Of a DNA stretch of 64,000 bases, positions 36,943-62,173 are shown in pieces. The translations under genes were made by a program, and so were the position numbers. This DNA is from Candidatus Eiseniibacteriota bacterium (GTDB lineage: Bacteria > Eisenbacteria > RBG-16-71-46 > CAIMUX01), in assembly GCA_020633975.1 (NCBI GenBank), contig JACKCR010000010.1, positions 65,839 through 129,838 of the forward strand, read 5' to 3'. The notes under the pieces were generated by a model. That model had not been told where the DNA came from. It did not search any database and worked only from the letters and a program-made list of their open reading frames with translations. Positions within the stretch are counted from its first letter, which is position 1, and each line of letters begins with the position of its first letter.

Positions 36943-36982
36943 TCACCTGGCTTTCCACGGAGTCCATCCTGGAGGTAGTGCC

Positions 36983-46247: not shown

Positions 46248-47090
46248 CTACGCGGCGCGATCGTCAGCCCTCGACTCCTGCGTGAACCCCGCTGCGAGGA
46301 GCGCCCGTCCCCAGCTGTGCTGGTCCTCGGGCGTCAGCGCGGAGAAGAGCGCTTCGATCGGAGCTTCGGCATCCTTGCCGACCACGCGGGAGAAGTTGCG
46401 GAGCGAATGCTCGAGCCCGGGCTCCAACTGGATCAGGTGGCAGACGTACTTCGGATCCGCGTGGGACTTGCAGAGGTGGGCACCGACGAGGAGGAACAGG
46501 TGCGACGCCTCCCGTCGCGGCCGTTCCATCATCTCTGGCCTACCGAAGTAGTAGCCCTGGAACAGCTGGAACCCTTCATCTCGCGCGATCTGGAGGTCTT
46601 CCTCAGTCTCCACCTTCTCCGCGACGAACTGAACGGAGAAGCGATCGAGGAGCGCCTTCCGCTCCTCCGGAGAGGTGGTCGTCATCTCCAGCTTGATGAT
46701 GTCGGCGAGGGCGAGGAACGGGGTGAGACGCGGCGAGTAGATGAAGTCGTCGAGGGCGATCCGGTAGCCGAGCTTCCGGAGCTCCCGACACGCTTCGACC
46801 ACTTCACGGTCCGGCTCGATGTTCTCCAGAATCTCCACAACGGTGAGTTCGGACGGAAGGACTTTGGGGAGACCGGCGACGAGGGACTCACGGGAACAGT
46901 TGAGAAAGGCGGGAGCCCCGTTGGTGAGTTCACCGATGCCGAGGGTGAGCCCGCCTTCCAGGACGACACGCGAGGTGGCATCGTGGGGGTCGATGTCGGG
47001 GTAGCTGTTGCTCGTCCCGTCTCGGAAAAACAGCTCATAGCCTACGATCTTCAGATCGCGGTCAAGGATCGGCTGTCTCGCGATGCACAT
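46248..47090 (-). CDS. EAL-domain and HDOD-domain signalling protein (c-di-GMP-related; COG3434-like).
   Basis: QPILD...VGYELFFR (EAL N-terminus). ALDDFIY in place of the ELxxDDFGTG region. A C-terminal HDOD-like region. Confidence 0.7.
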   Translation of the reverse strand: MCIARQPILDRDLKIVGYELFFRDGTSNSYPDIDPHDATSRVVLEGGLTLGIGELTNGAPAFLNCSRESLVAGLPKVLPSELTVVEILENIEPDREVVEACRELRKLGYRIALDDFIYSPRLTPFLALADIIKLEMTTTSPEERKALLDRFSVQFVAEKVETEEDLQIARDEGFQLFQGYYFGRPEMMERPRREASHLFLLVGAHLCKSHADPKYVCHLIQLEPGLEHSLRNFSRVVGKDAEAPIEALFSALTPEDQHSWGRALLAAGFTQESRADDRAA

Positions 47091-47372
47091 GGACACGCGA
47101 TATCCACCCCCGGAACGGTCCTCGTCTAGGCCACCTTGGCAGGGAGTTGGCCTCCCACCCCTCCTCCTGGTATCGACGGATAGGGCAGGCGTCTGGAGCA
47201 AAGGTTGTGGCCGGAAGATTGCTGATGCTACCCACGCACACCATTATTTTCCAACTGCTTATGCCACGTCTCACGCAACTCATCCCGACCGCGGAGCCGG
47301 TTCCTGGTCATCTCATTGTCGGGTCAGCCCTCGCGGAGCCGGCGTCAGCAATCTTCCGGCCACCCCCCCGGA

Positions 47373-48431
47373 TCACGCAGGTGGGGTGAAGACGAACGGG
47401 GTCCGGAAAGTGACCGTTCCTTCCGGAATGGCGGGGAACTTCCACTCCCGAACCTGGGCGAGGACACACTCCCGGAGCGCGGCCGAGCCCAGGGAGTCCT
47501 GGGCGATCGAAGCTTCAGCCACTCCTCCCGACGGGAGCACCGTCAGCACGATCACCATCTTTCCCTCGAGGCCAGGCTCCCGCTTGAGCTGGTTGTCATA
47601 GCAGAACTGGATTCCTGCCGCGTACTTACGGACCACGGCCAGGAGCGACGCGTTGCTCCGGAAGGAGCCGGCTACGGCACCCCCACCGACGGAGCTCCCT
47701 GGATCGGCCGACGCGAGGTCGCCGGATCCACCGCTGTCCACGGACTCGATGTCGATGAGATCCCCGGTGACGACCTGGCCGCCGCCACCACCCCCGCCGA
47801 CATCCTCTCGAGCGGCGACGGCACCGGTGACATCCCCTGCGGAGCGGCCGCGGCCGGGCCGTCCGCGACCTCCCTTGCGCTCCGGGACATTGGAGCCGCC
47901 GGTTGTCGGGGCGATGGACGCGAGGTCGGATTGGAGGGCGTTGAGGGTCGACTCCACCGACTTGGTGGTCGACTTGAGGGCCTGGGCGACTTCGGTAGTG
48001 GCCTTCGCGCGCCCCGCCGTGCCGCGTTCCTCGGCCAGCTTGTTGTCTTCTCGGGCCCGACGGGGAGGGGCCGTGGTCTTGGGTTCGACCTTGGGAACGG
48101 GCGTTGGCTCGACCTTGGGCTCGGCCTTCGGTTCGGGCGTCGGGGCCACCTCTGGAACCTTCGGCTCGGGAATGGCAGCGAGTTCGGGTATCTCGACCGG
48201 CGCGGGGCCGAGTACCGGAGGCACGGGCTTCCGCTTCTCGAGGATCAGCTTCGCGAGACGCTCGGGCACTTCCTCGACGCGAGGAGGAGCCGCGACGCGG
48301 ATCGGCGCGATGAGCGCAACCGCGAGTACGGCGATGCCCAGGCCGCTCGAGATGAGGAGCGCCCGGCGGAACTTCGGGTCCGGTACCGCAAAGAGGGACC
48401 GGCGATACTCTGCATGGAGAGTGCGGTTCAT
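47373..48431 (-). CDS. TonB-like protein with an N-terminal TM, a Pro/Lys-rich (PEPKVEPK) spacer, a Gly-rich region and an AgmX/PglI-type C-terminal domain.
   Basis: The C-terminus IQFCYDNQLKREPGLEGKMVIVLTVLPSGGVAEASIAQDSLGSAALRECVLAQVREWKFPAIPEGTVTFRTPFVF matches the AgmX/PglI C-terminal pattern (C-Y...C...W.FP...G.V.V..PFVF). Confidence 0.65.
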   Translation of the reverse strand: MNRTLHAEYRRSLFAVPDPKFRRALLISSGLGIAVLAVALIAPIRVAAPPRVEEVPERLAKLILEKRKPVPPVLGPAPVEIPELAAIPEPKVPEVAPTPEPKAEPKVEPTPVPKVEPKTTAPPRRAREDNKLAEERGTAGRAKATTEVAQALKSTTKSVESTLNALQSDLASIAPTTGGSNVPERKGGRGRPGRGRSAGDVTGAVAAREDVGGGGGGGQVVTGDLIDIESVDSGGSGDLASADPGSSVGGGAVAGSFRSNASLLAVVRKYAAGIQFCYDNQLKREPGLEGKMVIVLTVLPSGGVAEASIAQDSLGSAALRECVLAQVREWKFPAIPEGTVTFRTPFVFTPPA

Positions 48432-48439
48432 CGCTCCCC

Positions 48440-48919
48440 CTAGGTCGTCCGGATGACCGCGAGCGAGATCTCGTCCCAGCCCTCGGCGCCGACGGTGTAC
48501 ATCACCCTTTGGAGAACCGCGAACTCGATCTCCCGATCTCCCTGGATCGTGACGAGACCGAGCTGCACATCTACACCTTGGATGCGCGCAAGGTCTTCCT
48601 TCTGGGCGCGGATGGTCTCGAGCTCGCGCGCTAGCTTCTCGATCCGCATTTCGTCACTCGCCATGACGGCGGATAGATCCGCCACCCAGTCTTCGCCGAC
48701 GAGGATGGACGTCTCCGTGATCGCGATGACGACGGAGTCCTCCGGATGCTCTTTGGCGGTCGACTCCGGGAGCTGGACTCCCGCCGACGGACTCATCTGC
48801 TCGTCGGCCACGAAGCTCTTCACGAGGAAGAGGAGCAGCACGACGAGGATGTCCATCATCGACGTCATCTTGAGAGCGACCGCGGGCTTCACCCGCCGAT
48901 GTCGTCCCGTCCGTCTCAT
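48440..48919 (-). CDS. ExbD/TolR-family biopolymer transport protein (first copy).
   Basis: N-terminal TM MTSMMDILVVLLLFLV plus periplasmic domain. Confidence 0.8.
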   Translation of the reverse strand: MRRTGRHRRVKPAVALKMTSMMDILVVLLLFLVKSFVADEQMSPSAGVQLPESTAKEHPEDSVVIAITETSILVGEDWVADLSAVMASDEMRIEKLARELETIRAQKEDLARIQGVDVQLGLVTIQGDREIEFAVLQRVMYTVGAEGWDEISLAVIRTT

Positions 48920-49021
48920 TCGAGTTCCTCCGGTTCGTTGCCGGTCACATCGAACATTCGACTCGCAGCCTTCAAGTGCCCTTCACTACTCACTCGTCGG
49001 CGTACGCCCGGTGGCAATACG

Positions 49022-49486
49022 TCAGTGCGAAACTTGGTCGCCTTGGAGCGATGCTTCGGGCAGTCCCGCCTCGCGGGATCGGTCCATCACTTCGATGATC
49101 TCGTCGTAGTGCGTCGTCGGCTGGGAGACGATCCTCACTGCGCGGTTGTCGGGGTGGTCCGTCGCCACCGTCTGGAGGTAGGCCGCGAGCTGGAAGGTCG
49201 CACCTACGTCTCTCCGATCCTCGCGCGGGAACTCCCGTGCTTCGATCCCGTTGCCTTCGACGCGGTAGGCGTCGGCCGTGATGTGGACGGCGAGATCGAG
49301 TGACTCCTTGGCATCCGCTTCCGCGCCGTCTCCTCCAGGCGCCGCCATGTGGATGACGGAGAGTTCGAGGAAGACCGCAGAGAGCAGCAGCATCGGAATC
49401 AGGACCACGAACAGGTTCATGAGGGGCATGATCTCTAGATCCGCCTCCACCAGGTCCCGCATCTTCCGTATCCGGTGTCGTGACAT
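49022..49486 (-). CDS. ExbD/TolR-family biopolymer transport protein (second copy).
   Basis: LEIMPLMNLFVVLIPMLLLSAVF TM plus ExbD-like periplasmic domain. Confidence 0.8.
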   Translation of the reverse strand: MSRHRIRKMRDLVEADLEIMPLMNLFVVLIPMLLLSAVFLELSVIHMAAPGGDGAEADAKESLDLAVHITADAYRVEGNGIEAREFPREDRRDVGATFQLAAYLQTVATDHPDNRAVRIVSQPTTHYDEIIEVMDRSREAGLPEASLQGDQVSH

Positions 49487-49508
49487 TCAGAAGCTCCTCG
49501 AGAACGTG

Positions 49509-50150
49509 CTAGGCGCTGTGGCGTCCGGCACGAAGGATGGCCTGCGTGATCCGCGCAGTCGTCTCCTCGACCTGTTCGACGATCGACTCGACCTTGCCCA
49601 CGAGGAAGCTGTGCGCGAGTAGCGTCGGGATCGCGACGATCAGTCCGAACGACGTCGTGTTGAGCGCTTGTGAGATGCCCGCGGCGAGGAACGCCGAGCG
49701 CTGCGCCGGGTCTGCAGCACCGACCGCAGAAAACGCCGTCGTGAGTCCGAAGATCGTTCCGAGGAGCCCGAGGAGCGTTGCCGTGTTCGCGAGGACGCCG
49801 AGGAGCGCAAGACGACGGGAGAGCGGAGGCAGGACGATGGTCGCGGCGCTCTCCGCAGCGTTGTAGATCCGGTCGTCGTTCCGCATGTCGGACGAGAGGA
49901 CGCTCGACGCTACGTGCGCTACAGGCCCGGTCACCTGCTTGGAGAGCGAGAGCGCACCGACCAGGTCTCCTTGCGAGATCCGTCCTTCCAGGTCCTTCAA
50001 CAGCTTCCGGCTGTCGATCGAACCGGCGCGTCCGATCGTCCAGAACCGCTCGAGGATGATGGCCAACGCGACCACGCCGATGGCGAGGATCACGAACATG
50101 AACGGTCCCCCGTTCCTGAAGAATGTGGCGAAGCCAGAGAGCAGATCCAT
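49509..50150 (-). CDS. MotA/TolQ/ExbB-family proton channel.
   Basis: Three TMs with the signature LGLLGTIFGLTTAF and a C-terminal TM. Confidence 0.9.
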   Translation of the reverse strand: MDLLSGFATFFRNGGPFMFVILAIGVVALAIILERFWTIGRAGSIDSRKLLKDLEGRISQGDLVGALSLSKQVTGPVAHVASSVLSSDMRNDDRIYNAAESAATIVLPPLSRRLALLGVLANTATLLGLLGTIFGLTTAFSAVGAADPAQRSAFLAAGISQALNTTSFGLIVAIPTLLAHSFLVGKVESIVEQVEETTARITQAILRAGRHSA

Positions 50151-50154
50151 GACG

Positions 50155-50544
50155 TCAATTCCTCCCTTGGGGTTCGTCGCTGGAACGAGGCGACGACGCC
50201 GGCTCCTCTCCGATCGGAGAGGCGGAGTCGTCCCAATCGAGAATCGAAACGGACGGAGCGAGCGTGCGACCGATCCAGAGAGGGATCGGGAACGTCACGA
50301 GAGAGCGCACGTCGTCCGCGCTGACCAGGTAGCCGCGATGGGCGATGTCCGGGAACCGGTACGGCTCCCTCGCCGTGATGAAGAGGACCTGTGGCATCGC
50401 CACCTCGCCCTCGATCGAAATCTCGTCGAGCGTTCGGGGCTCCTCGGCGGCAGCGAGAGCTGGGAACGCGAGGAACGAGGAAGCGAGGGCCGTGGCGGCG
50501 AGGGCCGTGGCAGCGAGCATGATGGTTCTTCGGGGTGTTCTCAT
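50155..50544 (-). CDS. Small secreted hypothetical protein (Ala-rich signal peptide). Its start overlaps the upstream stop by 4 nt.
   Basis: MRTPRRTIMLAATALAATALASSFLAFPALAAA. Confidence 0.4.
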   Translation of the reverse strand: MRTPRRTIMLAATALAATALASSFLAFPALAAAEEPRTLDEISIEGEVAMPQVLFITAREPYRFPDIAHRGYLVSADDVRSLVTFPIPLWIGRTLAPSVSILDWDDSASPIGEEPASSPRSSDEPQGRN

Positions 50545-51620
50545 GGGTTCCCTCCGCTGACACGAAGACTCTCGACCGGTTCACCGAACACTTCCGCAAG
50601 ACCGTCGGGGTCATCGTCCGATTGCGCTCGGTAGCGCCGGTAGTACGCGGTCGCCTCTTCGTCGTCGAAGAAGTAGAACTGCTCTACGATGGCGAGGTTG
50701 TAGAGTGCGCCGGGTTGTTCGGGCTCGAGTTCGAGGGCACGAAGGAAGTACGTCTCTGCCTCCCGGGGCTTCCCTTCCTGAAGAAGCGCGATACCGTAGT
50801 TCGTACAGTTCGCACCGTTTTCTTCCGCCTCGAGTGCACGCTCTGCCCATCGGGGAGCCTCTCGATAGTGCTCACCCTGGAGACGTGTGTAGGTCAGGAC
50901 GGACCCCACCGATGCCCAATGCTCCCCGCGAGCTTCGAGCGGAGAAAGCGTGGACTCTGCAGCGGCCACCTCCCCGGTTGCCAACTGGTGGAGTGCCAAA
51001 CAGGCACGAACCTCGGGTGCGCCGCGCATGACGTGCTCTGCGAGGGCGGGCTCGAGGATCTCGATCGCCTCGAAGTGGCGACCCTGATCGTAGAGCAGCT
51101 GCGACAGAAGCGTCAGCGACGGCGCATATCCCGGATCGATCGCGAGCGCACGACGAAGTGAGGTCTCGGCCAACTCCTCGGCCAACTCCTCGGCCGATGC
51201 CTCGGCCGACACTTCGCTCGCCCGCCTCTGCGCGCTTTCGTACACCGATTCGGGTGCATCGAGTTCGAGCTCCGCGATCCGGTGGGGCCAGTATGGTTCG
51301 TTGGGTGACGCGTCCGCCTTTGCCTCGAGCGAAGCATGTGCTTCCGTCCATGCGACGATGTCGTCTCCGATCTGAGCGTTGGTCCACGCAGTCGGGTCGT
51401 CGCCCTTGCCACGGAAGACACCGCAACCAGAGAGCAGCATCCCAGCAACCACGACAACGCACGGCCATACACGGGACCGAGACAACCGTCGGCCGGCGCG
51501 TAGCCGGTGCGATGGAGGCACGACGCAAGAGGACCGCGCATCACTCGAGGGACGCTCGAGCTGTGAGGACGACTGCTGCTTCCATGGGGACATCGCGTCC
51601 GCACGTCGCCGTTCCATCAT
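50541..51620 (-). CDS. TPR-repeat lipoprotein. Its ATG overlaps the stop of the upstream giant TPR gene (ATGA), and an AAGGAGGAG SD is present.
   Basis: Lipobox LLSGC. TPR-like helices such as AIEILEPALAEH, YNLAIVEQFYF and EAETYFLRALELEP. Confidence 0.7.
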   Translation of the reverse strand: MMERRRADAMSPWKQQSSSQLERPSSDARSSCVVPPSHRLRAGRRLSRSRVWPCVVVVAGMLLSGCGVFRGKGDDPTAWTNAQIGDDIVAWTEAHASLEAKADASPNEPYWPHRIAELELDAPESVYESAQRRASEVSAEASAEELAEELAETSLRRALAIDPGYAPSLTLLSQLLYDQGRHFEAIEILEPALAEHVMRGAPEVRACLALHQLATGEVAAAESTLSPLEARGEHWASVGSVLTYTRLQGEHYREAPRWAERALEAEENGANCTNYGIALLQEGKPREAETYFLRALELEPEQPGALYNLAIVEQFYFFDDEEATAYYRRYRAQSDDDPDGLAEVFGEPVESLRVSGGNP

Positions 51621-54600
51621 CGAGACTCCTCCTTGGGGCGGATCGCGGCCACGATAGGGTGGTCGACCTCGGCCAGGTGCACGAACCGGTCGGCGACACG
51701 CGGCCAGAGCGAACTCTGCGTCCGTTCTAGCCAACGTCCGTCGTCCTCGAGATCGGGATCGATGTTGCGGAGCAGCTCGGCCCACGCGTCTTCGCCGCGG
51801 TCGTAGAAGGACCAGGACTGCTCTTCGAGGACCTCGTCGTACGCGACCAGATCGTCCCCCGAGAGATCGGACGGACGCTCGCTGTCCCGCAGTCGATCTC
51901 CGAACCCGATGAGCGCCTCACCGATGCGGAAGGCGGCCGCCTGGCTGTACGGGGAGACTCCGCGGCGAACCACTGCGCCGTATGCCCCGACCGTGGCCTC
52001 GAGCGCTGTCTTCTTGCGCGCCAACGACTCGGCAAGCGGCTGGAGCAAGCGGATCGTCTCGTACTCGCGCTTCACCTCCTCCGCTCGAAGGAAGTCGACG
52101 CGTGCGAGAAGTGCGGGGTCCGCGAGGGACGAGTCCGCTTCCGCGAGGGCGATGTAGTTGGCGAGATCACTCTCCGTCCCGAGCAAATCTTCGATCCCAC
52201 CGGGGCGGACGCCGTTGGAGAAGGCGTCGATCGTCCCGAGACGGTCGAGGTCACGAACCGACTGCCTGTGGTAGACGGCGGCCGCCGTGGCACGGTCCTC
52301 TGGGAACCGTTCGACGTACGACCGTTCCGTCGCTTCCGCCGCAGGCTCGTTCCCGGCCTCGCGCCAGAGATCAGCAGAGTGGAGCAGCGCGGGCCCAGAT
52401 TCGTCGTCGGCTGGGAACGCGACAGAGAACCGTTCGAAAGCCCGCGCTGCATCTTCGTCCCGTCCGGCGTCCTCGAGAGTCGACGCAAGCTGGAGGTGCG
52501 CGTCCCGCACGTACTCGCCGTCTGGGTATCGGTGAAGGAGTTCCTCGAAGCAACGAGCAGCGCCCAAGATCTCCTTCTCTTCCGCGTACATCACTCCGGC
52601 CCGATAGAGTGAGTTCTCGGCCTGCTCGAACCGGGGCCAACCGAAAGCCAGTCGTTCGAAAGCCTGGGCGGATTCGGTGCCGGACAGGGACTCTGCATGG
52701 AGATAGAAGCTGTGGGGCACTAGGTCCCCGACGTGATGCGCAAGGCTGTCCTGTCCCGCAGAACGGGCGGCGCGCTCCGCGTCGACGTAGGCATTGGCTG
52801 CCGAGTCGTACCGCTCACTCCGGTAGAAGACGTCGCCGCGAAGGGCGAGCGCCTTGGGACTCCGTGCGTCCTGCGGATACCTACGAGCGAACGCCTCGTA
52901 CCGGCTCGCCGCCTCGTCGTCCCACTCCCGGTTCCAAGCCACGCCAGCCTGACGCCAGGCGAGGTCGGGACCACGTAGGTCGAAGGGATCACGGTCCAGG
53001 TACGCGTCCGCCTCATCGAGGAGCGCACGGGCGAGTGCATCGGTCTGCTCTTCCTCGTACCAAGCGTCGAGCACGGCGAGCGACTGCCAGGCGGCGTCTC
53101 GAGCGAACGGTTGGTCCTCGGCCCGCGCTGCGATCTGGAACGCTTCATGTGCACGCTCACGCTTCCCGCTCCGCGCGGCGACTTCGCCGACCTGATACTG
53201 GATGCGCGCCGCTTCGGGATCGTCGGGCCAGAGCGCGAGCATCCGGTCGTAGAGAGCGAGCGCACGCTCCCATTCCTCGGTTGCGACGGCCTTCCCGCCG
53301 GCTTCCATCTCCCGAGCGCGATGATGGTGGAAGAGAGCGACATCGTGGATAGACGTTCGGGAGAAGTCCGTCGCGTTCGTGCGAAGGGAGTCGGAGTCGT
53401 TCGCTCCGAACCACTCGGTGCCGGGTAGGAAGCGCTCGGCGAGTTCGAGACGAGCGGCGCGTGCGAGCTCCGGACGCTCTCCTGCCTCGTAGGTCTCGAT
53501 CAAACCGTCCGCAATGCCGAGCGCCCGGGGATCGGTCGGATAGCGGTCCAGCCAGAGTCGATCGCACTCTGCGGCCTCTGCGAAGAGCGAGTAGCGGCGA
53601 AGGAGCGTGCCCACGGCAGCGAAGACGTCCCGTTCATAGCTTCGCGGTCCGATCGTGTCGAAGAGATCGGCAGCGTTGGCGCCACCGCCTCCGCGCGCGA
53701 GCGAGTGGATGAGATAGTCGGTCGACTCCCCGCGAAGGTCGGTCGAGACCGGCGCCTCTGCTCCGGACTCGTAGAGATCGAGCACGCGCGCGAAGGACGA
53801 CGCGGCTTGGTCGAACCGATCGCTTCGGTAGTGAGACCAACCGAGTTTGTAGAGCGCGATGACGGATAGTCCAGGATCGGCTCCGTCTGCCGCGCTCTCG
53901 TACAACGTGGCGGCGAGGTCGAGGCGCCCCTGATCGAAGCGGTAGTCCGCCATGCGGAGGTCCGCTTCCTGGCGGAACGCGGAGTTCGGGAACTGTGCAA
54001 CGAGCTGCTCCAAAGCGTCCATGCCGCTGTCGTCTCCATCGTCGGCCTTCAATACGCCGACGTGGTAGAGCGCGGCATCGAGGTGAGCGAAGTCCGGATG
54101 ACGTCGGACGATCTCGCCATACAGTTCGAGCGCGCGCCCGCTCTCGAGGATGGGGACGACGTGCCGGACGCGTTCCCCTTCGGCGAGTGCCAGGTACGCG
54201 GCCATCTCCTCGCGGAACCGTTCCTTGGACCCCGTGAGTTCGAGGTCGGCGAGTCGATAGAGTGCCTCCGCTCGCGTCGACGCCTTCGGGTAGGCTTCGA
54301 GGAATCCGGCCCACTCGCTTCGCGCCGTATCGACATCCCCGCGTCCCCGGATCGCGAGCTCGTAGGCCGCGAGAGCGTTCGTGTAGCGCACGGGTTCGTC
54401 CATCCCCTCCAGACGCGCCAGCTCTCGGTCGACCGCGCCTCCCACGACGATTCGACGTGCCTCGGTCCACTCTCCGACACGATCCGACACGACTCGGTCC
54501 CAGGCACGCACCTCATCGTGGAACCGGGCCATCAGGGCGTCCTGATCGAGTCCTTCGAGCTTCCTCGCGATCGCAGCTTCGGTCTCCTGCGAACGGCGGA

Positions 54601-56371
54601 GAAGAGCATCGATCCTCGCAGAGAGGTTCGAGATGCCGTCGATGAAGGCGGGCTTCCAGACTTGCTCGCGGCTCCTCCGGATCCGATCGGGCATCACTTC
54701 GCGGAACTGTGCTGCCGTCTCCGAGAGATCCCCAGCGAATCGCTCGGACTTGCCGAGGAGATCGCCGCGATCCACGTACCCTTGCGGGGGAGCTACCTGG
54801 CGCTGTTCGTCGGGACCGGTCTCGTAGAAGTGGTCCAGGGCCGCCATCCGTGCGAGCGTGTCCACCGCACGCGCTTCGATCTCCGCCATCTCCGCGTCGA
54901 TCCGGGCGATCTCGCGCTCGCTCACGTCGTCGATCTTCGCGAGAAGACGACTGAGATCCGCTTCGAGCGCGTGGATCTTCTCGGCGAGAAGCCTCAGTTC
55001 GATCGCCTCGTCCGCCGCGGCACGCCGCCCGCGTTCGAGATAGAGACGTCTCCGATCGATCTCCCCACGTGCCTGCTGGAGACGCCAGCGCGCTCGTTCC
55101 CGCTCGGAGAACGCGGACCGCGCAGCACTCTCGAGTGACGACACCCACGCGAGCGAGTCCGGCGACGCGAGAGGAACGAGGCGGGAGAGGGAGGCCGGCC
55201 CGGTGGCCTCCCCGAGCGATCGTGCAGGCAGTTCGACCGCCCCCCGCCTCGATCCCAACACCAAGTCCGGAGTCCAGGCCTCTGCGTCTGCCCGGAACGG
55301 CACAGGCGGAACCTCGAGGACGCGAACCGGGCCGAAACCTGCGTCACGCTCCCAATCGCCCCATACCTGCTCGGGGATCGGATGTTCCTTCAGCTGGAGG
55401 AGTGAACGACGGCGAAGGTCGACTGCGTCCCGCGCCCTGGCGAACTGGTCCGCAGCGCGTTCGAACTCGCCTCGATCGAGGGCCACGCTTCCGAGCCGAA
55501 GATGCGCTTGCGGAACAAGTGGATGTTCCGGATGGTCCGCGATCCAGTCGGCGAGTGCGGACGTCGCCAAGTCGCGTGGCATCGACGTATCCGATACCGA
55601 CGCGCCGCCCCCGACGTTCGACGAAGCGTCCTCGGGCATCTCGACCGATTCGATTTCGCCCAGAATCGCCGCCAAAGTCGAGTAGGAGTCCGTCGCCTCG
55701 GAGGACGCACTTCCCAGCCTCTCCCACACTTCGCGGAACTCGGCCGACGCGATCCCCGTGGTGTCCTCCCCCACACGCGCACGTCGACGCGCATCTGCAT
55801 CACGCACCCAGTCTGCGAACGCGGACGGATCTCGCCACTGCGTGACTTCGTCCGCGAGCCGCGTGAGGCTCGCGTCGGCTCCCATCCGCTCGTAACACCA
55901 CGCGCGAACGAACGCGGCACGGTCCGCGCCGCTGTAGGCCGACGGGTCGAGCGGACACCTCTCCGCCTCCGTCGCCGCGCCGAGCAGATCCTGGCGGGAC
56001 AGATAGAAGAGGGCGCGACGCAGGTGGAGTTCTCCCCACTCCTCATCCGTCACGGAAGGAGTAGCGATGGAAAGCTCGACGCGCTCCACCTCCAACGCGC
56101 CATTCGCGGTGCCCGCAACTCCGAACTGTTCCGCGTCGGATGCCGTGGCAGCGGGCGTAGCGTCTGAAGCGAGTCCGTCCTCGACAGCGGTCGACAACTC
56201 CTGGGAGTACGCGACGTCGATCCCGACCTGCGTCATCGCGACCACGCCCAACAACGCGACCGGCGACGCGACCAGGCCCACGCCCAGCAACGCCACCAGC
56301 GACGCGACGGCCGCGCGCCCACTTTCGGTCGCGCCGCGCACGGTCCTGGCGAATGTCGTTCGCGGGATCAC
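51617..56371 (-). CDS. Giant (about 1,585 aa) TPR-repeat protein with an N-terminal signal/TM. Its probable GTG start overlaps the upstream stop (GTGA).
   Basis: Dozens of TPR-like units (ALYRLADLEL, ALYKLGWSHYRSDRFDQAASSFARVL, QYQVGEVAARSGKRERAHEAF and others). The size and composition resemble the GltD/AgmU-like giant TPR proteins of Agl/Glt-type clusters. Confidence 0.7.
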   Translation of the reverse strand: MIPRTTFARTVRGATESGRAAVASLVALLGVGLVASPVALLGVVAMTQVGIDVAYSQELSTAVEDGLASDATPAATASDAEQFGVAGTANGALEVERVELSIATPSVTDEEWGELHLRRALFYLSRQDLLGAATEAERCPLDPSAYSGADRAAFVRAWCYERMGADASLTRLADEVTQWRDPSAFADWVRDADARRRARVGEDTTGIASAEFREVWERLGSASSEATDSYSTLAAILGEIESVEMPEDASSNVGGGASVSDTSMPRDLATSALADWIADHPEHPLVPQAHLRLGSVALDRGEFERAADQFARARDAVDLRRRSLLQLKEHPIPEQVWGDWERDAGFGPVRVLEVPPVPFRADAEAWTPDLVLGSRRGAVELPARSLGEATGPASLSRLVPLASPDSLAWVSSLESAARSAFSERERARWRLQQARGEIDRRRLYLERGRRAAADEAIELRLLAEKIHALEADLSRLLAKIDDVSEREIARIDAEMAEIEARAVDTLARMAALDHFYETGPDEQRQVAPPQGYVDRGDLLGKSERFAGDLSETAAQFREVMPDRIRRSREQVWKPAFIDGISNLSARIDALLRRSQETEAAIARKLEGLDQDALMARFHDEVRAWDRVVSDRVGEWTEARRIVVGGAVDRELARLEGMDEPVRYTNALAAYELAIRGRGDVDTARSEWAGFLEAYPKASTRAEALYRLADLELTGSKERFREEMAAYLALAEGERVRHVVPILESGRALELYGEIVRRHPDFAHLDAALYHVGVLKADDGDDSGMDALEQLVAQFPNSAFRQEADLRMADYRFDQGRLDLAATLYESAADGADPGLSVIALYKLGWSHYRSDRFDQAASSFARVLDLYESGAEAPVSTDLRGESTDYLIHSLARGGGGANAADLFDTIGPRSYERDVFAAVGTLLRRYSLFAEAAECDRLWLDRYPTDPRALGIADGLIETYEAGERPELARAARLELAERFLPGTEWFGANDSDSLRTNATDFSRTSIHDVALFHHHRAREMEAGGKAVATEEWERALALYDRMLALWPDDPEAARIQYQVGEVAARSGKRERAHEAFQIAARAEDQPFARDAAWQSLAVLDAWYEEEQTDALARALLDEADAYLDRDPFDLRGPDLAWRQAGVAWNREWDDEAASRYEAFARRYPQDARSPKALALRGDVFYRSERYDSAANAYVDAERAARSAGQDSLAHHVGDLVPHSFYLHAESLSGTESAQAFERLAFGWPRFEQAENSLYRAGVMYAEEKEILGAARCFEELLHRYPDGEYVRDAHLQLASTLEDAGRDEDAARAFERFSVAFPADDESGPALLHSADLWREAGNEPAAEATERSYVERFPEDRATAAAVYHRQSVRDLDRLGTIDAFSNGVRPGGIEDLLGTESDLANYIALAEADSSLADPALLARVDFLRAEEVKREYETIRLLQPLAESLARKKTALEATVGAYGAVVRRGVSPYSQAAAFRIGEALIGFGDRLRDSERPSDLSGDDLVAYDEVLEEQSWSFYDRGEDAWAELLRNIDPDLEDDGRWLERTQSSLWPRVADRFVHLAEVDHPIVAAIRPKEESR

Positions 56372-57237
56372 CACGTCCAGTCCATGCCTCCGAACGAAGT
56401 GGGGCGACTCCACGTTTCGGCCTTCCACGCACTCGTGTCTTCCCCAAGCCGGAAGGTCGAAAGGTCCAGCTGGAGGAAATGGAGTCGATCGCGCGCCGGA
56501 TCCAGTCGCAAGTAGACCGACATGCCTTCCTGGTCCGTCGACGCGGGGATGACGAGTTCTAGCACCTGCTCCCGCGGTTCCACGAACTCGTGGTCGATCT
56601 CGATCACGCCACCTTGGTGGAGCACGGACTCGAGCTCCCGGTCTAGGGAGACGACTGTCTCCCGGCCGTCGTCCCTCCGGAGCCTGAGTCCGTCGAGACG
56701 CCAGTCCGGATACCCGCTCGCGAGTACGACCAGGCTCGTCACGTGATCGTCGACATAGTCCTCGTGCAGCTCGGTGAGACGCGCTTCGTGATCGTCGAGC
56801 AGTGCGGCCAACGACTGGATCCTGGACTCCACCTCGGCAAGCTCACCCACCGACTCGAGAAGACGATCGGTGGCGAGGTCGGCAGCTTCTCGATCGAGTT
56901 GGTCGGTCGCGGAGTCGAGTTCGTGATCCAGTTCAAGATACCGGATCCAGGTCGGGTCGATCGCACCGGCCCTCTCCGCACGCGCTTCCTCGCTCCAGTA
57001 GACACCGTCGATCTGGCTGCGCAGGAAGTCGAGGTTCTCCTGCAGAAAGAGCAACGACGGCTTCTTCGTCCGATCCGGCTTCTCTCGCTCGACCTTCACG
57101 GGCGCAGCGTCCGGAACGATGGTTGCTGCGTCTTCGCCGAAGGCCGCTGAAGCGCAGAGCAGGGAGACTGCGCACGACAGCAAAGTGACTCGGCTCGGCG
57201 ATGGTGAACCGCTACTCGAACTACGGATCCGATCCAT
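56368..57237 (-). CDS. Secreted hypothetical protein with coiled-coil segments.
   Basis: Signal MDRIRSSSSGSPSPSRVTLLSCAVSLLCASAAFG. Heptad-like acidic helices. Confidence 0.45.
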   Translation of the reverse strand: MDRIRSSSSGSPSPSRVTLLSCAVSLLCASAAFGEDAATIVPDAAPVKVEREKPDRTKKPSLLFLQENLDFLRSQIDGVYWSEEARAERAGAIDPTWIRYLELDHELDSATDQLDREAADLATDRLLESVGELAEVESRIQSLAALLDDHEARLTELHEDYVDDHVTSLVVLASGYPDWRLDGLRLRRDDGRETVVSLDRELESVLHQGGVIEIDHEFVEPREQVLELVIPASTDQEGMSVYLRLDPARDRLHFLQLDLSTFRLGEDTSAWKAETWSRPTSFGGMDWTW

Positions 57238-57905
57238 CAACCCCTCCAGGTCTTGTCGACGTTTCCGGTTGCCGCATCGACGAGGACGAAGAGCGACGGC
57301 AATCCTGGAGCGCGGTAGATGACGAGCCAACTGGTTCGCTCTGGCTTCTTCGGATCCGCGGCACTCCGGATGAGCACCATGTGCGCGAGTTCGCCCCCGG
57401 ACTCGGCCCGGAACTTCGCACCTTGCTTCTCTTCCGCTGCAGCTAGTGCGCGCTGGCTGTCGACCCAGCTACCGAGAGGCGGGGAGTCGAACCGGAGCGC
57501 AAGGTCCGCCGCCTGAACGACCTTTGCACCCTGCACCGAGTACCCACGCGACCGGTCTCGAGTCTGAGACCGGAACAGGTAGCCCCATCGACCCGCGCTA
57601 CCCGTGGCGTCCACCGGCTCGTCGTTCTCCACGTAGACGAGTTCCGCGTCGTCCGCCCACGCGAGTGCAGCGGACGTCGCCACCTGGAGCCCTTCACTCG
57701 CACTGATCGCGAGCTGGTCTCCAGCGAAGGCAGTACTGAGGAACGCGTCCGACTGCGGCGCCGTGGCACCGACCACGAGTGCCACCAGGCCTGCAGCCAT
57801 TCCGTAGACCCCACGGCGGATGCGGCGATGAGCGTCTCGCTCGAAGGCCGAGGCATGCGAAGGCAACGCCGAGACGGCGCTCGATCGGATCATCCCGTAC
57901 TCCAA
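57237..57905 (-). CDS. Secreted hypothetical protein.
   Basis: Signal-like GMAAGLVALVVGATAPQSDA. Contiguous with its neighbours. Confidence 0.4.
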   Translation of the reverse strand: MEYGMIRSSAVSALPSHASAFERDAHRRIRRGVYGMAAGLVALVVGATAPQSDAFLSTAFAGDQLAISASEGLQVATSAALAWADDAELVYVENDEPVDATGSAGRWGYLFRSQTRDRSRGYSVQGAKVVQAADLALRFDSPPLGSWVDSQRALAAAEEKQGAKFRAESGGELAHMVLIRSAADPKKPERTSWLVIYRAPGLPSLFVLVDAATGNVDKTWRG

Positions 57906-59072
57906 TCAGAAGAGCACCGAAGTGCCGAAGCTGAACTCGATGTTGTGATTCGTGCGCCGCGCCTGATCGAAGCCGGCGTCGAAGCGATAGCTGCGCAGTT
58001 CCCAGCGAGTAGCGGTCGTCTTGGTGAGGAAGAGCGTCGTTCCTCCTCCGTAGTTCCACGACGACTCGGTGCGTCCCTGGAGGATCGACGCACCGGCTCC
58101 GCCCACCAGGTACGGCACCATCTGGCGGCCGGGGAGGAGTTCGAGGCGCATTCCGAGGCTGTAGTACAGCATGTGGAAGTCTTCGGCCTCGAGGCTCAGG
58201 TTGAAGAGCGACTCCACCACTTCCGCCGGCCGATGAATGTGGGTCCAGGAGACGCCGCCCTCCACTTCCACGAAGTCCAGCAGGTAGTAGCCGATCCGTC
58301 CGCCGAGGGCGACAGAGTTGGACTTGCGGTCGTAGGCATATCCACCGGCGTAGCCGGTCAGCGTGAATGCGCCCGTCCGCGAGAAGAGGCGAGGATTCGG
58401 GCGCATCTCTAGATGGGAGAGATCCTCGAACTCCTCGCAGAGCGCCGAGTGCACCCAGCCGCTCGTCGTCTCGGAGAGCTCGACGCTGTACCAATCGCCC
58501 TTCTTTGCGAGCACTCGGTACTCGGAGCCCTTCGTCACGACCGCAACGATGGCGTACTCGTCTCCCGGCCCGCGGCGAAGCACGTTGTGGTCTCCACCAG
58601 TGAGCCGGACCATCGGGATCGCGTATCCCCAGCCGTCGATCAGCCGCGCGGGAGAGGTCGTGATCTCTTCAGAAGCGACGCTACGCGAATCGTTGGACGT
58701 CGAAGCGACGCTGCGCGAACCGTTGGACGTCGAAGTGACGCCGCCGGCCGTCGCGGGAACCGACGAGGACTCGGAGGAAAGGCGTGACTCGGCCGGAACG
58801 TCCCACGAAACCCTGGTCGCACGGACGTTCTGATCGACGTTCTGATCGACGTGCTCATCTGCGCTCGTCCCCACCTCTTGGAACCACTCGACCGGAGCGC
58901 CCGTAGTGCCCGAGTCGATCGGGTCGCCCTCTGCGCGGGCGATGCTCCAGGAGTGCACCAACGCGATCACGAGCGCCGCCAGGCGCAAAGGTGGGACGAG
59001 CCTCCATGACCGACCGCACTGACCGCCAAACAGCTCTCTTCGCAAGTCACCCCTCCTTGCAAACGCACGCAT
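57906..59072 (-). CDS. Outer-membrane protein with a bacterial SH3 (SH3b) domain followed by a C-terminal beta-barrel with terminal Phe. It contains a 33-nt imperfect tandem repeat at about 58680-58745.
   Basis: SH3b-like GSEYRVLAKKGDWYSVELSETTSGWVHSAL. The C-terminus ...NIEFSFGTSVLF ends in Phe. The repeat is TSTSNGSRSVASTSNDSRSVAS. Confidence 0.55.
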   Translation of the reverse strand: MRAFARRGDLRRELFGGQCGRSWRLVPPLRLAALVIALVHSWSIARAEGDPIDSGTTGAPVEWFQEVGTSADEHVDQNVDQNVRATRVSWDVPAESRLSSESSSVPATAGGVTSTSNGSRSVASTSNDSRSVASEEITTSPARLIDGWGYAIPMVRLTGGDHNVLRRGPGDEYAIVAVVTKGSEYRVLAKKGDWYSVELSETTSGWVHSALCEEFEDLSHLEMRPNPRLFSRTGAFTLTGYAGGYAYDRKSNSVALGGRIGYYLLDFVEVEGGVSWTHIHRPAEVVESLFNLSLEAEDFHMLYYSLGMRLELLPGRQMVPYLVGGAGASILQGRTESSWNYGGGTTLFLTKTTATRWELRSYRFDAGFDQARRTNHNIEFSFGTSVLF

Positions 59073-59074
59073 GC

Positions 59075-59722
59075 TCAGAAGCTCCAACCGAGTTCGGCCC
59101 GCGCCGTCCACTCGCCGAACGACTCGTCCTGGAACACGATCAGATCGCCGTCACGATGGGCTGTCTCCATCTGAAAAACGTGGTGATCGACGAGCGCACC
59201 GACGAACACACCTATCGGGAGGCGGTACTGTGTGCCGACTCCGGCGCTGCCGATCCATCCGTCCACCGGATCGAGCGGAACGTCGATCTCCTCTTGGCTT
59301 CCGGACGGGACGAACTGCAACGCTTCGGTCCCGTAGCTCAGCCGCATCCATCCGCCGCTTCCTTGCCCGTAGAGAGACCACCCGGCTACTTGTACGAGGT
59401 CGAACCGGAGCACCGCCTCGGCCGCGACCATCCGCGTGTCGAGGTCGAGCGACAGAACACCGGGAATCTCGACGGACTGCACGTTCGTCGTCGTCCATCC
59501 GCGCGCCCCTACTCCCAAGCGTCCGCGGCCGACGAGAAGCTGCGCCCCGAGGTTGGACTGGTCGTCCACGCTCCACTGATAGTCGGCGAAGTGCGGGTCG
59601 GGGCGCGTCGCCCCTGCGAGCGCCGACAGATCGACGTGGATCGGCAGCAGTGGAGCCGCCAGGACATCACGCGGACCGAAGGACGACGCGATGATCGTCA
59701 ACGCCAACGCTGAAAGTCGCAT
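59075..59722 (-). CDS. Small outer-membrane beta-barrel protein.
   Basis: Signal MRLSALALTIIASSFG. Alternating beta pattern. C-terminal ...RAELGWSF. Confidence 0.5.
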   Translation of the reverse strand: MRLSALALTIIASSFGPRDVLAAPLLPIHVDLSALAGATRPDPHFADYQWSVDDQSNLGAQLLVGRGRLGVGARGWTTTNVQSVEIPGVLSLDLDTRMVAAEAVLRFDLVQVAGWSLYGQGSGGWMRLSYGTEALQFVPSGSQEEIDVPLDPVDGWIGSAGVGTQYRLPIGVFVGALVDHHVFQMETAHRDGDLIVFQDESFGEWTARAELGWSF

Positions 59723-59748
59723 TCCGTTCGTGGACATGGCTTGCTCCC

Positions 59749-60327
59749 TCAGTTGCCTTCGGCCAGGACGTACGCGCCCGGAAGGATGTGTTCGTGCTCG
59801 AAGTCGCGAGCAGTGATGACGACGGACTCGCCGCCTCCCGGCTCGCGAACCTCTTCGACATCCCCGAAGTAGAAGACTGCGAAGGTCGCACCTCCTGCGG
59901 GAGGCACCGGAGTGTCACCGGGGAAGTAGAAGTCGACCTCCTGGATCAGTCGATCGAAGCCGGTGACGGAACGGCTGGAGCTACCGCTCGGCCCAGTCGA
60001 CTCGAGCAGCGCCGTGATCTGACGCGTCGTCGCGAGCCGGTCCGCTTCGTCACGTAGATCGACATCCTTCGCTCCGAGAGTCTCACTCGAGCGGATCTCC
60101 ATGATCAGGCTGCCGGTGAGGATGGAGCGGTAGGTGATCCGCCCGCGGACGCGGAGCGCAGGATCGTCCGTCTCTGGATCGATCGCGCCAGACTCCACTT
60201 CGACGATGTCGAGGCGGGTCCACTGATCCTCGATCTCGGGCGCACCGAGGCACCCCTGGAGGTGGGGCATGACGAGGAGGCACGCGAGCGCGAGCCATCC
60301 TCGCAGATGTCGTGCCGTGGCCTGCAT
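59749..60327 (-). CDS. Hypothetical lipoprotein.
   Basis: MQATARHLRGWLALACLLVMPHLQGC lipobox. Confidence 0.4.
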   Translation of the reverse strand: MQATARHLRGWLALACLLVMPHLQGCLGAPEIEDQWTRLDIVEVESGAIDPETDDPALRVRGRITYRSILTGSLIMEIRSSETLGAKDVDLRDEADRLATTRQITALLESTGPSGSSSRSVTGFDRLIQEVDFYFPGDTPVPPAGGATFAVFYFGDVEEVREPGGGESVVITARDFEHEHILPGAYVLAEGN

Positions 60328-60502: not shown

Positions 60503-62173
60503 TCAGCGCAGCCGCACCATCCTCCCCTCCCAATCCCGATCGCCCGCGTGCACGCGATAGAAGTAGACGCCGGACCCGAGCTCGTTGCCTCGGTCGTCCC
60601 TGCCGTCCCACACCACGTCGACCGGACCGCCGGCGTGTTGCTCTACGACCGTGCGCACACGTCGTCCAGAGAGATCGAAGACCTCGGCTTCCACGAGACC
60701 GGACGTCCCGCTCGGGAAGGAGAGGCGTAGAGACACCTGATCGAGGAAGGGATTGGGGAACGTCCCTTGGAACTGCGCGGTGGTCGTGCCGAACTCCCCG
60801 ATCCACGCGTTGGTCGTCGCGATGACAGGAGTACGATCGGCATAGGTCGACCGCGCCTCCACTACCCATCTCACCGTTCCGTCCGTCGACTCCGACGGCC
60901 CGAGCTCGTCCTTCGCGAACGAGACGTCGCGGGCGCCCGCTCGAACGAGGCCGAGATCGCGTCGAGCGAGTGTGCGTCCAGAGCTGTCCTCGAGGCGCGC
61001 TTCGACTCGGGCGGCGTCCGTGAGCACGAACTGCGCACTCAGCGGGGTCTCCTCACGAACGGTGAGGCCGTCGACATCCACACCCAAGGTCCACGCCTGC
61101 ACACCGGTATGCTCACCCCACTCCTCGACGAGCAGTCCGCGGCCCTCGGCGGCGCGCGTCTTGGTTCCATTGCGGTGGTCCGTGGTGGTGACGAACGGCA
61201 CGTGGAAGCTCCTCGGCCGTGCACTCGCCGTCTCGTCGACCGCGAGGACCTCGAGGTCACTCGACCACTTGCTCACCCGGCCCTCGAACGGAGCGACGGC
61301 GTAGATCTGTCCGAACCGATCCGTCTCGAGCCCTGTCACGAGCGTGCCGTCGTGACGGACTTCCCGTCCCCACTGGAGCGTGGACCCGTCGTCGACCAGC
61401 TCGACCAGGCGACGGTTGTGTGCGTCCGCAACGTAGACTCGATCGCTGCTGTGGTCTCCGTCTCGACCCACGGCTACGGCCATCGGTCCAGCGAACCGAC
61501 CGACTCCGCTACCCAGCCCGCCGATCGCACTCGTACGTGCAAAGCCACTTCCTTCAACGCGCTCGAACCGACTGACCTGGTTCTTCCCCGCTTCGGCGAC
61601 ATAGACCCGGTCGTCCTGGGGATCGAACGGGGTTCCTCCATCCGATACCGCGACTCCGTAGGGCCGACTGACGCCGGTGATCTCTCCCACCGCGGTCAGC
61701 TCGAGACGGTCGAACTCCTGAGACGTCCGCAGTACCAGCACGCGATCGTTTCCGCTGTCGCAGACGTAGACGTTGCCAGAGTCATCGACCGCGAGGCCAC
61801 GAGGCGACGCGAGGGGACCGCCGCCACCTTCCGCACCACTCCACGCGGTCACCCTTCCGCTGCCGGTCGCAGTCACTACGAGACGGTTCCACTCAGGATC
61901 CGACACGACGACGAAGTAGCGCGACTCGACATAGGGGAAGACGTCGTAGACGTCGACGTTCCCTACCACGACGGAGGCGTAGGGCGTTCCGAAGAGCTCC
62001 CGCCCCATCTCCTTCTCCGCGACCCCCCGGTCGAACACATGGACACCCAGCTCCGGAGCCACGTCCTCGGACTCGAACGTCGCAGCCCAACCCGTAGAAG
62101 GCAGACATGCGACGAGGAGGGCAAGGAACGAGCTCGCGACGAGCGGCGTGGGGCTCAGAGTGTGGCTCTGCAT
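60503..62173 (-). CDS. Secreted NHL-repeat (six-bladed-propeller-like) protein with a C-terminal FlgD-Ig/T9SS-type sorting domain.
   Basis: Signal MQSHTLSPTPLVASSFLALLVACLPSTGWA. NHL-like PRGLAVDDSGNVYVCDSGNDRV, PYGVAVSD...RVYVAE and RVYVADAHNRRL. C-terminal GLVEAEVFDLSGRRVRTV...VVWDGRDDRGNELGSGVYFYRV. Confidence 0.75.
   Translation of the reverse strand: MQSHTLSPTPLVASSFLALLVACLPSTGWAATFESEDVAPELGVHVFDRGVAEKEMGRELFGTPYASVVVGNVDVYDVFPYVESRYFVVVSDPEWNRLVVTATGSGRVTAWSGAEGGGGPLASPRGLAVDDSGNVYVCDSGNDRVLVLRTSQEFDRLELTAVGEITGVSRPYGVAVSDGGTPFDPQDDRVYVAEAGKNQVSRFERVEGSGFARTSAIGGLGSGVGRFAGPMAVAVGRDGDHSSDRVYVADAHNRRLVELVDDGSTLQWGREVRHDGTLVTGLETDRFGQIYAVAPFEGRVSKWSSDLEVLAVDETASARPRSFHVPFVTTTDHRNGTKTRAAEGRGLLVEEWGEHTGVQAWTLGVDVDGLTVREETPLSAQFVLTDAARVEARLEDSSGRTLARRDLGLVRAGARDVSFAKDELGPSESTDGTVRWVVEARSTYADRTPVIATTNAWIGEFGTTTAQFQGTFPNPFLDQVSLRLSFPSGTSGLVEAEVFDLSGRRVRTVVEQHAGGPVDVVWDGRDDRGNELGSGVYFYRVHAGDRDWEGRMVRLR

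Follow-up and report, generated by a model that had tools for sequence, protein, structure and literature searches.

Two machines of Myxococcus, Agl-Glt for gliding and Agl-Nfs for the spore coat, have been proposed to descend from one ancestral core complex. According to Luciano 2011 (PMC3169522), this core consists of gltC, gltD, gltE, gltG, aglR, aglQ and aglS together with one extra gene that is absent from Myxococcales; as a single cluster whose function is unknown, these genes occur in Gammaproteobacteria, one betaproteobacterium, Geobacter and Fibrobacter succinogenes, and the paper argues that the core complex alone does not drive motility. Here, we analyzed a minus-strand gene cluster in a stretch of 64,000 nucleotides from a Candidatus Eiseniibacteriota bacterium (contig JACKCR010000010.1; the whole stretch is referred to as the window, and all coordinates are those of the window). 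We consider it likely that this cluster is a stand-alone member of the Agl-Glt core-complex family, encoding an envelope-spanning machine driven by the proton motive force. Its gene content, domain identities, conserved gene order and homology to betaproteobacterial core clusters are matters of direct observation. The family is already known, and the Eisenbacteria-type cluster is a distinct variant, a strongly conserved relative of the core complex.

Every gene listed in the original prediction, which had been made from the DNA of the window, was found at its coordinates within a minus-strand string at 47373-59737. The predicted order, i.e., two secreted proteins, a giant tetratricopeptide repeat (TPR) protein, a TPR lipoprotein, a small secreted protein, a TolQ-like protein, two TolR-like proteins and a TonB-like protein, agrees with the Pfam and NCBIfam assignments. 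The borders proposed for the cluster (47373-57905) enclose these genes but are too narrow, as the co-oriented conserved string continues upstream to the window end at 64000. The DNA of the region has a G+C content of 62-68%. Adjacent genes abut or overlap by 1-4 nt, e.g., with an ATGA between the giant and the TPR lipoprotein, which fits a single operon; a scan for terminators downstream of the TonB-like gene found none. The genes of the core part are the following:

47373-48431, minus strand: GltG-type TonB-like force transducer, 352 aa (matches to NF033768, GltG, GltJ and TonB_C)
48440-48919, minus strand: ExbD/TolR-like stator subunit b (ExbD-b), 159 aa, membrane Asp kept (PF02472, 55.2 bits)
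49022-49486, minus strand: ExbD/TolR-like stator subunit a (ExbD-a), 154 aa, Asn in place of the membrane Asp (PF02472, 45.9 bits)
49509-50150, minus strand: ExbB/TolQ/AglR-like proton-channel subunit (ExbB), 213 aa (PF01618, 86.3 bits)
50155-50544, minus strand: small secreted protein, 129 aa, positional equivalent of the extra gene of the core complex and of gltF
50541-51620, minus strand: TPR lipoprotein in the GltE position (TPR Pfam matches, LLSGC lipobox); start uncertain, public calls at 51440 or 51620
51617-56371, minus strand: giant periplasmic scaffold protein, 1584 aa (TPR; same length as the public gene call)

Homology to the betaproteobacterial core clusters

The window shares with the core complex the order of a GltD-like, a GltE-like, a small, a TolQ-like, two TolR-like and a GltG-like gene, the last of about 350 aa. 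The likeness to an Agl-Glt core suggested beforehand is borne out in that the order is collinear with GltD, GltE, the extra gene, AglR, AglQ, AglS and GltG of Methylibium. The published table (Table S3, PMC3169522) lists for this organism Mpe_A1224 (GltC, 634 aa), A1225 (GltD, 941 aa), A1226 (GltE, 243 aa), A1228 (AglR, 217 aa), A1229 (AglQ, 170 aa), A1230 (AglS, 163 aa) and A1231 (GltG, 371 aa), with A1227 unlisted. For F. succinogenes it gives a GltC-like protein of 746 aa, a GltD-like protein of 1292 aa, an AglR-like protein of 212 aa, an AglS-like protein of 164 aa and a TonB-family protein of 308 aa.

Word-based searches with the giant returned eight relatives, the most distant being P0006, P0007 and P0008, each of which precedes a small gene, ExbB, two ExbD and a TonB-like gene. 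Close relatives of P0008 bear the names Rubrivivax, Leptothrix or Betaproteobacteria, the group which contains Methylibium. The proteins of the P0008 locus, L091, measure 664, 1133, 110, 223, 172, 162 and 371 aa, and those of a further betaproteobacterial locus, L093, 652, 1171, 115, 225, 167, 169 and 383 aa. From the named relatives and from gene order and sizes, L091 and L093 presumably represent the published betaproteobacterial core complex.

The giant had been called GltD-like, and this is supported by the comparison of 38 giants with 31 betaproteobacterial GltD-like proteins using hhalign (probability 100%, E 7e-49), which aligned giant residues 646-1573 with residues 22-994 of P0008 over 879 collinear columns. 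The next-best, register-shifted alignments reached just E 2e-7 to 3e-5, the level expected of TPR repeats alone. Further, an alignment of 21 sequences across both groups contains 27 invariant columns. The step from here to Myxococcus GltD would go through the literature assignment of the Methylibium cluster (Table S3, PMC3169522). Neither the giant nor the betaproteobacterial GltD-like protein matches an NCBIfam GltD model, so that the absence of such a match is uninformative.

Residues ~646-1573 of the giant make up the GltD-like TPR solenoid, and residues 1 to ~645 form a lineage-specific, partly coiled-coil extension. An AlphaFold2 model of the C-terminal 945 residues is all-helical (mean pLDDT 89) and consists of a single long run of helix pairs, which suits a scaffold role. 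Foldseek comparison of the model with PDB gave TM-scores of about 0.15, only to long TPR scaffolds of a generic kind; PflA and PflB, the periplasmic scaffold of the Campylobacter flagellar motor, are found at ranks 27-44 and are to be read as an analogy only. The N-terminal 639 aa had 32 matches in 1.84 billion representative proteins, all of them giants of 1435-1690 aa or truncated calls. Matches of 774-984 aa were considered as stand-alone GltC-like proteins and rejected; they are collinear with the giant to the last residue and are, therefore, gene calls cut at contig ends.

For the TPR lipoprotein, the assignment as GltE/AglT-like is tentative; position, lipobox and TPRs fit, but the similarity is that of generic TPR proteins, with 23.9 bits on the GltE model NF033758 (cutoff 225). 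The lipoprotein aligned with a C-terminal TPR module, the final ~100 residues, of the betaproteobacterial GltD-like protein with a hhalign probability of 93-95%, and this module matches the same part of the Myxococcus GltE model. Since the C-terminus of the GltD-like protein thus matches both, L091 (4301-7702) and L093 (10001-13516) seem to encode the GltE-like module as a fusion with the GltD-like protein, whereas this module is a separate lipoprotein in the window. The Methylibium table has GltD and GltE as separate genes of 941 and 243 aa.

In the small secreted protein, the signal peptide precedes a hydrophobic strand motif, which reads ISIEGEVAMPQVLFITAR in the window and QIIGNRELPKVLYIV in L091. 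The pattern L-[DE]-x-I-x-I-E-G-E-[IV]-x-x-P-Q-V-L-F-I-T is common to it and to the small proteins of L089, L090 and L091.

In summary of the homologous parts, the window and the betaproteobacterial core-type clusters share the C-terminal 930 aa of the giant, the C-terminal domain of the transducer, the motor proteins and an Asn/Asp pair of TolR-like proteins. In contrast to the core complex, no GltC-like gene was detected in the window cluster, the giant carries an extra N-terminal region of ~640 aa found only in its own lineage, and conserved genes for the proteins H, I, an SH3-barrel protein, K, L and an NHL protein with a type IX secretion (T9SS) tail are added. The host phyla Eisenbacteria, Krumholzibacteria and Latescibacteria lie outside the 2011 survey.

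Transducer, motor and gene order in related loci

The C-terminus of the TonB-like protein had been predicted to match the AgmX/PglI domain. It scored 86.5 bits on the corresponding model NF033768 (cutoff 40), compared to 28.6 bits on Pfam TonB_C (cutoff 24.6) and 35.8 bits on TIGR01352 (cutoff 27.1), which confirms the assignment. Residues 123-351 correspond to positions 410-648 of the 650 positions in the GltG model NF033760 (51.4 bits, E 7e-14), and on the GltJ model the C-terminus reached 46.2 bits. The matched stretch of GltG is its periplasmic part, which in a published structural model wraps GltD and ends in a domain like the C-terminal domain (CTD) of TonB (PMC11761067). Betaproteobacterial transducers score lower on these Myxococcus-derived models (58-62 bits on NF033768, 40.5 bits on GltG); the C-terminal domains of the window type and the betaproteobacterial type align with a hhalign probability of 99%. 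Several relatives are already annotated publicly as AgmX/PglI C-terminal domain-containing proteins.

An AlphaFold2 model of the transducer, based on 16 homologues, places the membrane helix at residues 19-41. A conserved helix (138-171) is flanked by disordered linkers, Pro-rich before it and Gly-rich after it, and the C-terminal domain (258-350) adopts the topology alpha-beta-beta-alpha-beta (pLDDT >90). In PDB, each of the 25 best matches to the model is a C-terminal domain of TonB, TolA, HasB or FusB, with 6sly, 5lw8 and 7zc8 at the top and target TM-scores of up to 0.66. Of these, 6sly and 7zc8 have been cited as the closest structural matches for the GltJ and GltG domains (PMC11761067). 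In the alignment of relatives, C277 and C322 of the C-terminal domain are invariant, and an invariant G-x-x-G-R motif opens the central helix. The cytoplasmic N-terminus comprises only ~18 residues, and no FHA, GYF or zinc-ribbon domain was found on the protein using Pfam and NCBIfam, the alignment and the AlphaFold2 model.

A His in the membrane helix of TonB and TolA binds the motor, in an SHLS motif (PMC12204202). The transducer helix has no His in the window or in any locus with a window-type motor. A His within a TonB-like S..VH motif occurs only in the loci L041, L051 and L073, where the window-type motor is missing between the small-protein and transducer genes. Since the His is confined to these loci, its covariation with the motor suggests that the transducer helix is matched to the motor it works with.

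Concerning the motor itself, the ExbB, ExbD, TolQ and TolR equivalog models all scored far under their cutoffs for the window proteins; the best equivalog of ExbB was tolQ (66.5 bits, cutoff 221), and tolR reached 26 bits (cutoff 127). Compared directly, the window ExbB scored 103-152 bits with the ExbB of other core-type clusters, 66 bits with the canonical-type ExbB of L051, and 29-40 bits with ExbB and TolQ of E. coli, which serve as guides only. ExbB keeps T145 and T178 of TolQ and has Gln at the position of TolQ E173, where betaproteobacterial clusters have Val or Ile.

The original prediction had asked for a check that the ExbD copies retain the conserved transmembrane Asp; only one copy does. 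In the column of E. coli TolR D23, ExbD-b has Asp in 49/49 orthologous loci, whereas ExbD-a has Asn in 50 of 52. An ExbD with Asn followed by one with Asp was also found in L089, L091 and L093. In Myxococcus, AglQ D28N abolishes function, and the Asp has been described for both AglQ and AglS. The conserved Asn/Asp stator pair bears on the question of how 5:2 motors use two Asp sites.

Related loci were collected by scanning species-representative genomes with the TonB-like alignment using very specific patterns, by which 93 relatives were found and 80 loci returned. These stem mostly from metagenome-assembled genomes (MAGs) named Eisenbacteria, Krumholzibacteria and Latescibacteria, with a few Gemmatimonadetes, one Fibrobacteraceae and some oddly named soil bins; no locus of Myxococcus, F. 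succinogenes or Methylibium was among the returns. Comparing 14 window proteins with the loci by tblastn, we found the order (L)-K-J-I-H-giant-TPR lipoprotein-small protein-ExbB-ExbD-ExbD-TonB-like wherever the flank suffices, with identities of 30-60%. For the counts, we used the 44 related loci whose sequence extends 7.5 kb or more beyond the TonB-like gene on its upstream side. All 44 contain the TPR lipoprotein and the small protein, and 43 contain the giant; the gene order is kept in 43/44 loci, and ExbB-ExbD-ExbD follow in the same order in 33. This arrangement is far beyond chance.

In nine of the 44 loci, no motor genes lie between the small protein and the TonB-like gene, which leaves the Myxococcus order gltD-gltE-gltF-gltG. 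As the TPR genes are kept in the motor-less loci, the transducer travels with the TPR genes and not with the motor, which is the opposite of an ordinary uptake operon that happens to have a TPR neighbor. Motor genes are absent from this position in L037, L042, L043, L045, L047, L053, L054, L058, L059, L075 and L080. The replacement in L051 (7546-10288) was read directly and consists of a canonical-type ExbB and two ExbD, both with Asp; in L041 and L073, there is just an ExbB match of 29-31% at the motor position. L038 and L057 are two contigs of the MAG SRR7614711_binner13_Refined_44, each with a complete copy of the cluster, which could be due to a duplication, as in the paralogous clusters of Myxococcus, or to a mixed bin.

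What is new here is the large, deep-branching set of carriers, the motor-less and motor-swapped loci, which represent natural experiments, and the fixed set of neighbors. Together, these provide concrete hypotheses on partners and output which are testable in culturable Betaproteobacteria or Gammaproteobacteria. A limited literature search found no paper joining these phyla with gliding, TonB or TolQ, and it turned up no account of the Asn/Asp pair, of the motor swaps or of the upstream module shared with other clusters.

Genes upstream of the scaffold gene

Upstream of the giant, the string continues with the following genes:

56368-57237, minus strand: secreted protein H, 289 aa, with a coiled-coil segment (signal peptide; no family match)
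57237-57893, minus strand: secreted protein I, 218 aa (signal peptide; no family match; conserved position, 43-71% identity)
57906-59072, minus strand: outer-membrane protein J, periplasmic SH3b domain and C-terminal beta-barrel ending in Phe (SH3_3, 38.6 bits; OMP_b-brl, 25.7 bits)
59075-59737, minus strand: secreted protein K, 220 aa, ending in ...GWSF (signal peptide, terminal aromatic residue; no family match)
59749-60327, minus strand: lipoprotein L, 192 aa (LQGC lipobox; conserved where the flank reaches)
60503-62173, minus strand: NHL-repeat beta-propeller with a T9SS C-terminal sorting domain (NHL, 42.4 bits; FlgD_ig, 45.7 bits; TIGR04183, 24.9 bits, cutoff 23)
62184-63344, minus strand: DUF3570 protein, 386 aa, ending in Phe (PF12094, 132.7 bits)
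63335-63577, minus strand: DUF4266 lipoprotein, 80 aa, with a C-terminal CxC motif (PF14086, 49.8 bits)
63692-64000, minus strand: thioredoxin/TlpA-like protein, C-terminal part, cut by the window end (Redoxin, 40.4 bits; AhpC-TSA, 35 bits)

H is the conserved upstream partner of the giant. When H, I, K and the giant were compared by hhalign with the proteins in the GltC position (h664, h652) and other accessory proteins of L089-L093, no pair exceeded 50% apart from H and h252 of L090 (84%) and one match at the level of the signal peptide. A kinship of the barrel and SH3 genes with GltA/B/H, as suggested beforehand, is conjectural; J comes near TIGR04565, a broader family (51.6 bits, cutoff 60), and its barrel aligned with the outer-membrane protein of L093, which itself scores 137.9 bits on this model, with a hhalign probability of 96.9%. 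K is conserved next to J, on its upstream side, in all loci with sufficient flank and is possibly a small outer-membrane barrel. A gene for an NHL/T9SS protein is found at the same place in L092, and we infer that this protein is a candidate surface cargo.

The DUF3570 protein is a probable outer-membrane barrel. DUF3570 proteins are known to be flavinylated by ApbE, and their genes cluster with genes for thioredoxin-like and DUF4266 proteins, the function being uncertain (PMC8238504); the published [ST]GA[ST] flavinylation motifs were not found in the DUF3570 copies of the window and the related loci. To view the region further upstream, the matching public contig JAGQHS010000020.1 was used (MAG GCA_020431765.1, Candidatus Eisenbacteria bacterium), whose ExbB is identical residue for residue. 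It contains the full thioredoxin gene and, upstream of it, a propeller gene with HZS_alpha and faint PD40 matches. The same upstream string occurs in L092 (module at 2793-4668), where the giant is just 35% identical. In L093, positions 1-7441, upstream of the GltC/GltD-like genes, encode ApbE, an HZS_alpha propeller, a 201-aa protein, an SH3 protein, a TIGR04565 barrel, thioredoxin, DUF4266 and DUF3570; in L091, DUF4266 and DUF3570 lie upstream of the cluster (303-1660). The HZS_alpha propeller is present in L092, L093 and L094. Since L089 and L090 are without the upstream module, the association holds in two of the four lineages sampled.

We suggest, tentatively and with considerable doubt, that the Glt-core genes might make up only the distal half of a larger supercluster, with about 17 genes, common to candidate phyla of the FCB superphylum (Fibrobacterota-Chlorobiota-Bacteroidota) and to Betaproteobacteria, and that the machine might be linked to periplasmic thiol chemistry. 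Such a supercluster would comprise propeller, thioredoxin, DUF4266 CxC lipoprotein, DUF3570, SH3/barrel proteins, the GltD/E-like scaffold, the small strand protein, the motor and the transducer. If true, the Agl-Glt core would originally have served to handle outer-membrane or surface proteins, driven by protons and linked to periplasmic thiol chemistry, with an unusual stator in which just one of the two TolR-like subunits is protonatable.

Proposed machine and alternative explanations

By analogy with 5:2 motors of solved structure, the inner-membrane motor of the TolQ/ExbB/AglR type in the proposed machine would be a pentamer surrounding a TolR-like heterodimer, and within this stator only ExbD-b would carry a protonatable Asp. 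The GltG-type transducer would dock on the motor with its N-terminal helix, cross the periplasm with its Pro- and Gly-rich linkers and bind the scaffold with its central helix and its TonB-like C-terminal domain. The GltD-like TPR solenoid of the giant may serve as this scaffold, held by the lipoprotein in the GltE position, and the small secreted protein might add a TonB-box-like strand to the beta-sheet of the transducer, following a literature proposal for GltF. J with its SH3 domain and barrel, the 220-aa protein K and possibly the DUF3570 protein would constitute an outer-membrane platform. Pulled by the motor, this platform would move, expose or release surface-attached material, plausibly the NHL/T9SS protein. 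Handling of surface material is our best guess for the output, and we think that nutrient import is not the output.

Several points weigh against the assignment to the Agl-Glt core family or against the machine as drawn here. The link of the cluster to Myxococcus is indirect and runs through the GltG, GltJ and GltE hidden Markov models and through a betaproteobacterial intermediate, which was recognized as Methylibium-like only from named relatives and gene sizes. On the TPR lipoprotein, the GltE model is weaker than the PrsT and PilW TPR models, and the homology of the small proteins is weak (hhalign probability 72-78%). No GltC homolog was found, as no cluster protein matches NF033756 or the 652- and 664-aa proteins in the GltC position of L093 and L091, single-sequence references having limited the sensitivity of this comparison. 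ExbD-a is without the Asp that has been reported for both AglQ and AglS. Finally, we infer the stoichiometry, all protein-protein contacts and the output, and the idea of a surface cargo rests on gene neighborhood in two FCB-superphylum loci only.

Among the alternatives, a true focal-adhesion gliding or spore-coat machine resembling Agl-Glt or Agl-Nfs of Myxococcus would explain the shared core parts, i.e., a TolQ-like motor with two TolR-like subunits, a long TPR scaffold, a TPR lipoprotein and a small protein before the transducer, as well as the genes for several outer-membrane barrels and for a surface protein that the operon contains. However, the ~18 cytoplasmic residues of the transducer are without the domains, FHA in GltG and zinc ribbon (ZnR) and GYF in GltJ, that would reach a cytoplasmic platform, and no equivalents of GltI, GltJ, GltK, CglB, AglZ or MglA were seen among the scanned open reading frames (ORFs) of the window, nor was any window gene assigned to GltA, GltB or GltH. 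Further differences from Myxococcus are the Asn of one TolR-like subunit and the location of the motor genes inside the cluster. Because the cytoplasmic coupling parts are missing, and with a core that is argued not to drive motility alone (Luciano 2011, PMC3169522), we judge a gliding or spore-coat function highly unlikely. Also improbable is an assignment as the Tol-Pal system of this lineage, in which TolQ and TolR would act with a CpoB/YbgF-like TPR protein and a TolA-like transducer to stabilize and constrict the outer membrane at division. In its favor, tolQ and tolR are the best equivalogs for the motor proteins, the giant scored 116.6 bits on TIGR02795 tol_pal_ybgF (cutoff 90.1) and also matches the BamD and CpoB models, the cluster is widespread in these phyla, and the propeller further upstream has faint matches to PD40, the TolB-type repeat. 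On the other hand, the score on TIGR02795 is a sum over eight stretches and comes from repeated TPR_6 units within a protein of 1584 aa, and the motor proteins miss the equivalog cutoffs by a wide margin. Neither a TolB with its N-terminal domain nor a peptidoglycan-binding Pal/OmpA_C lipoprotein was found in the operon or among the scanned ORFs of the window, and the TonB-like protein, with no TolA domain III assigned, is without a match to TolA models, its 383-aa counterpart in L093 reaching 16 bits on tolA_full (cutoff 59). Betaproteobacteria with the homologous cluster are known to have a separate canonical Tol-Pal system.

An ordinary exbB-exbD-exbD-tonB operon for nutrient uptake, located by chance downstream of unrelated TPR genes, would have the same motor families and a transducer of the same topology, with N-terminal anchor, Pro-rich linker and TonB-CTD fold. 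The order ExbB-ExbD-ExbD-TonB is common, TonB_C and TIGR01352 both pass their cutoffs, and in L051, one of the three loci where the window-type motor is missing and the transducer helix has a His, the replacement looks canonical, with two Asp-bearing ExbD. Nevertheless, this explanation is hardly credible. The original prediction had named a canonical TonB_C as best match, together with TPR genes of unrelated families, as the sign of such an operon; instead, AgmX/PglI scored far above TonB_C, and TPR genes accompany the TonB-like gene in all 44 loci, including the nine motor-less ones, as obligate neighbors. Further, the transducer helix has a TonB-type His only in the three motor-swapped loci, one of the two ExbD paralogs has Asn at the position of the Asp, the ExbB and ExbD equivalog scores are far too low, and no TonB-dependent receptor is present among the scanned ORFs of the window. 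One more described arrangement is comparable: clusters of the Planctomycetes-Verrucomicrobia-Chlamydiae group (PMC12204202) have the same layout of TPR protein, TolQ-like protein, two unlike TolR-like proteins and a membrane-anchored transducer. Their transducers carry a vWA head and an SHLS/His helix, whereas that of the window has an AgmX/TonB-CTD head and no His.

The genes flanking the cluster vary among genomes. In the window, an EAL-domain protein of the cyclic-di-GMP phosphodiesterase family is encoded at 46248-47201 (minus strand), just downstream, beyond a gap of ~170 bp that separates it from the TonB-like gene; the other genomes with downstream genes listed do not share it at that place. 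On the plus strand, an ORF of >2045 aa at 1-6138, which runs off the window start, contains multihaem modules of the cytochrome c7/c3 type and an MtrC/MtrF-like domain, and a protein of 1854 aa with many fibronectin type III repeats is encoded at 10843-16407. A DUF2339 membrane protein (~1005 aa) followed by a 935-aa beta-propeller with a T9SS sorting tail lies at 36872-42697 (plus strand). Since both this propeller and the NHL protein at 60503-62173 carry T9SS tails, the organism appears to use type IX secretion.

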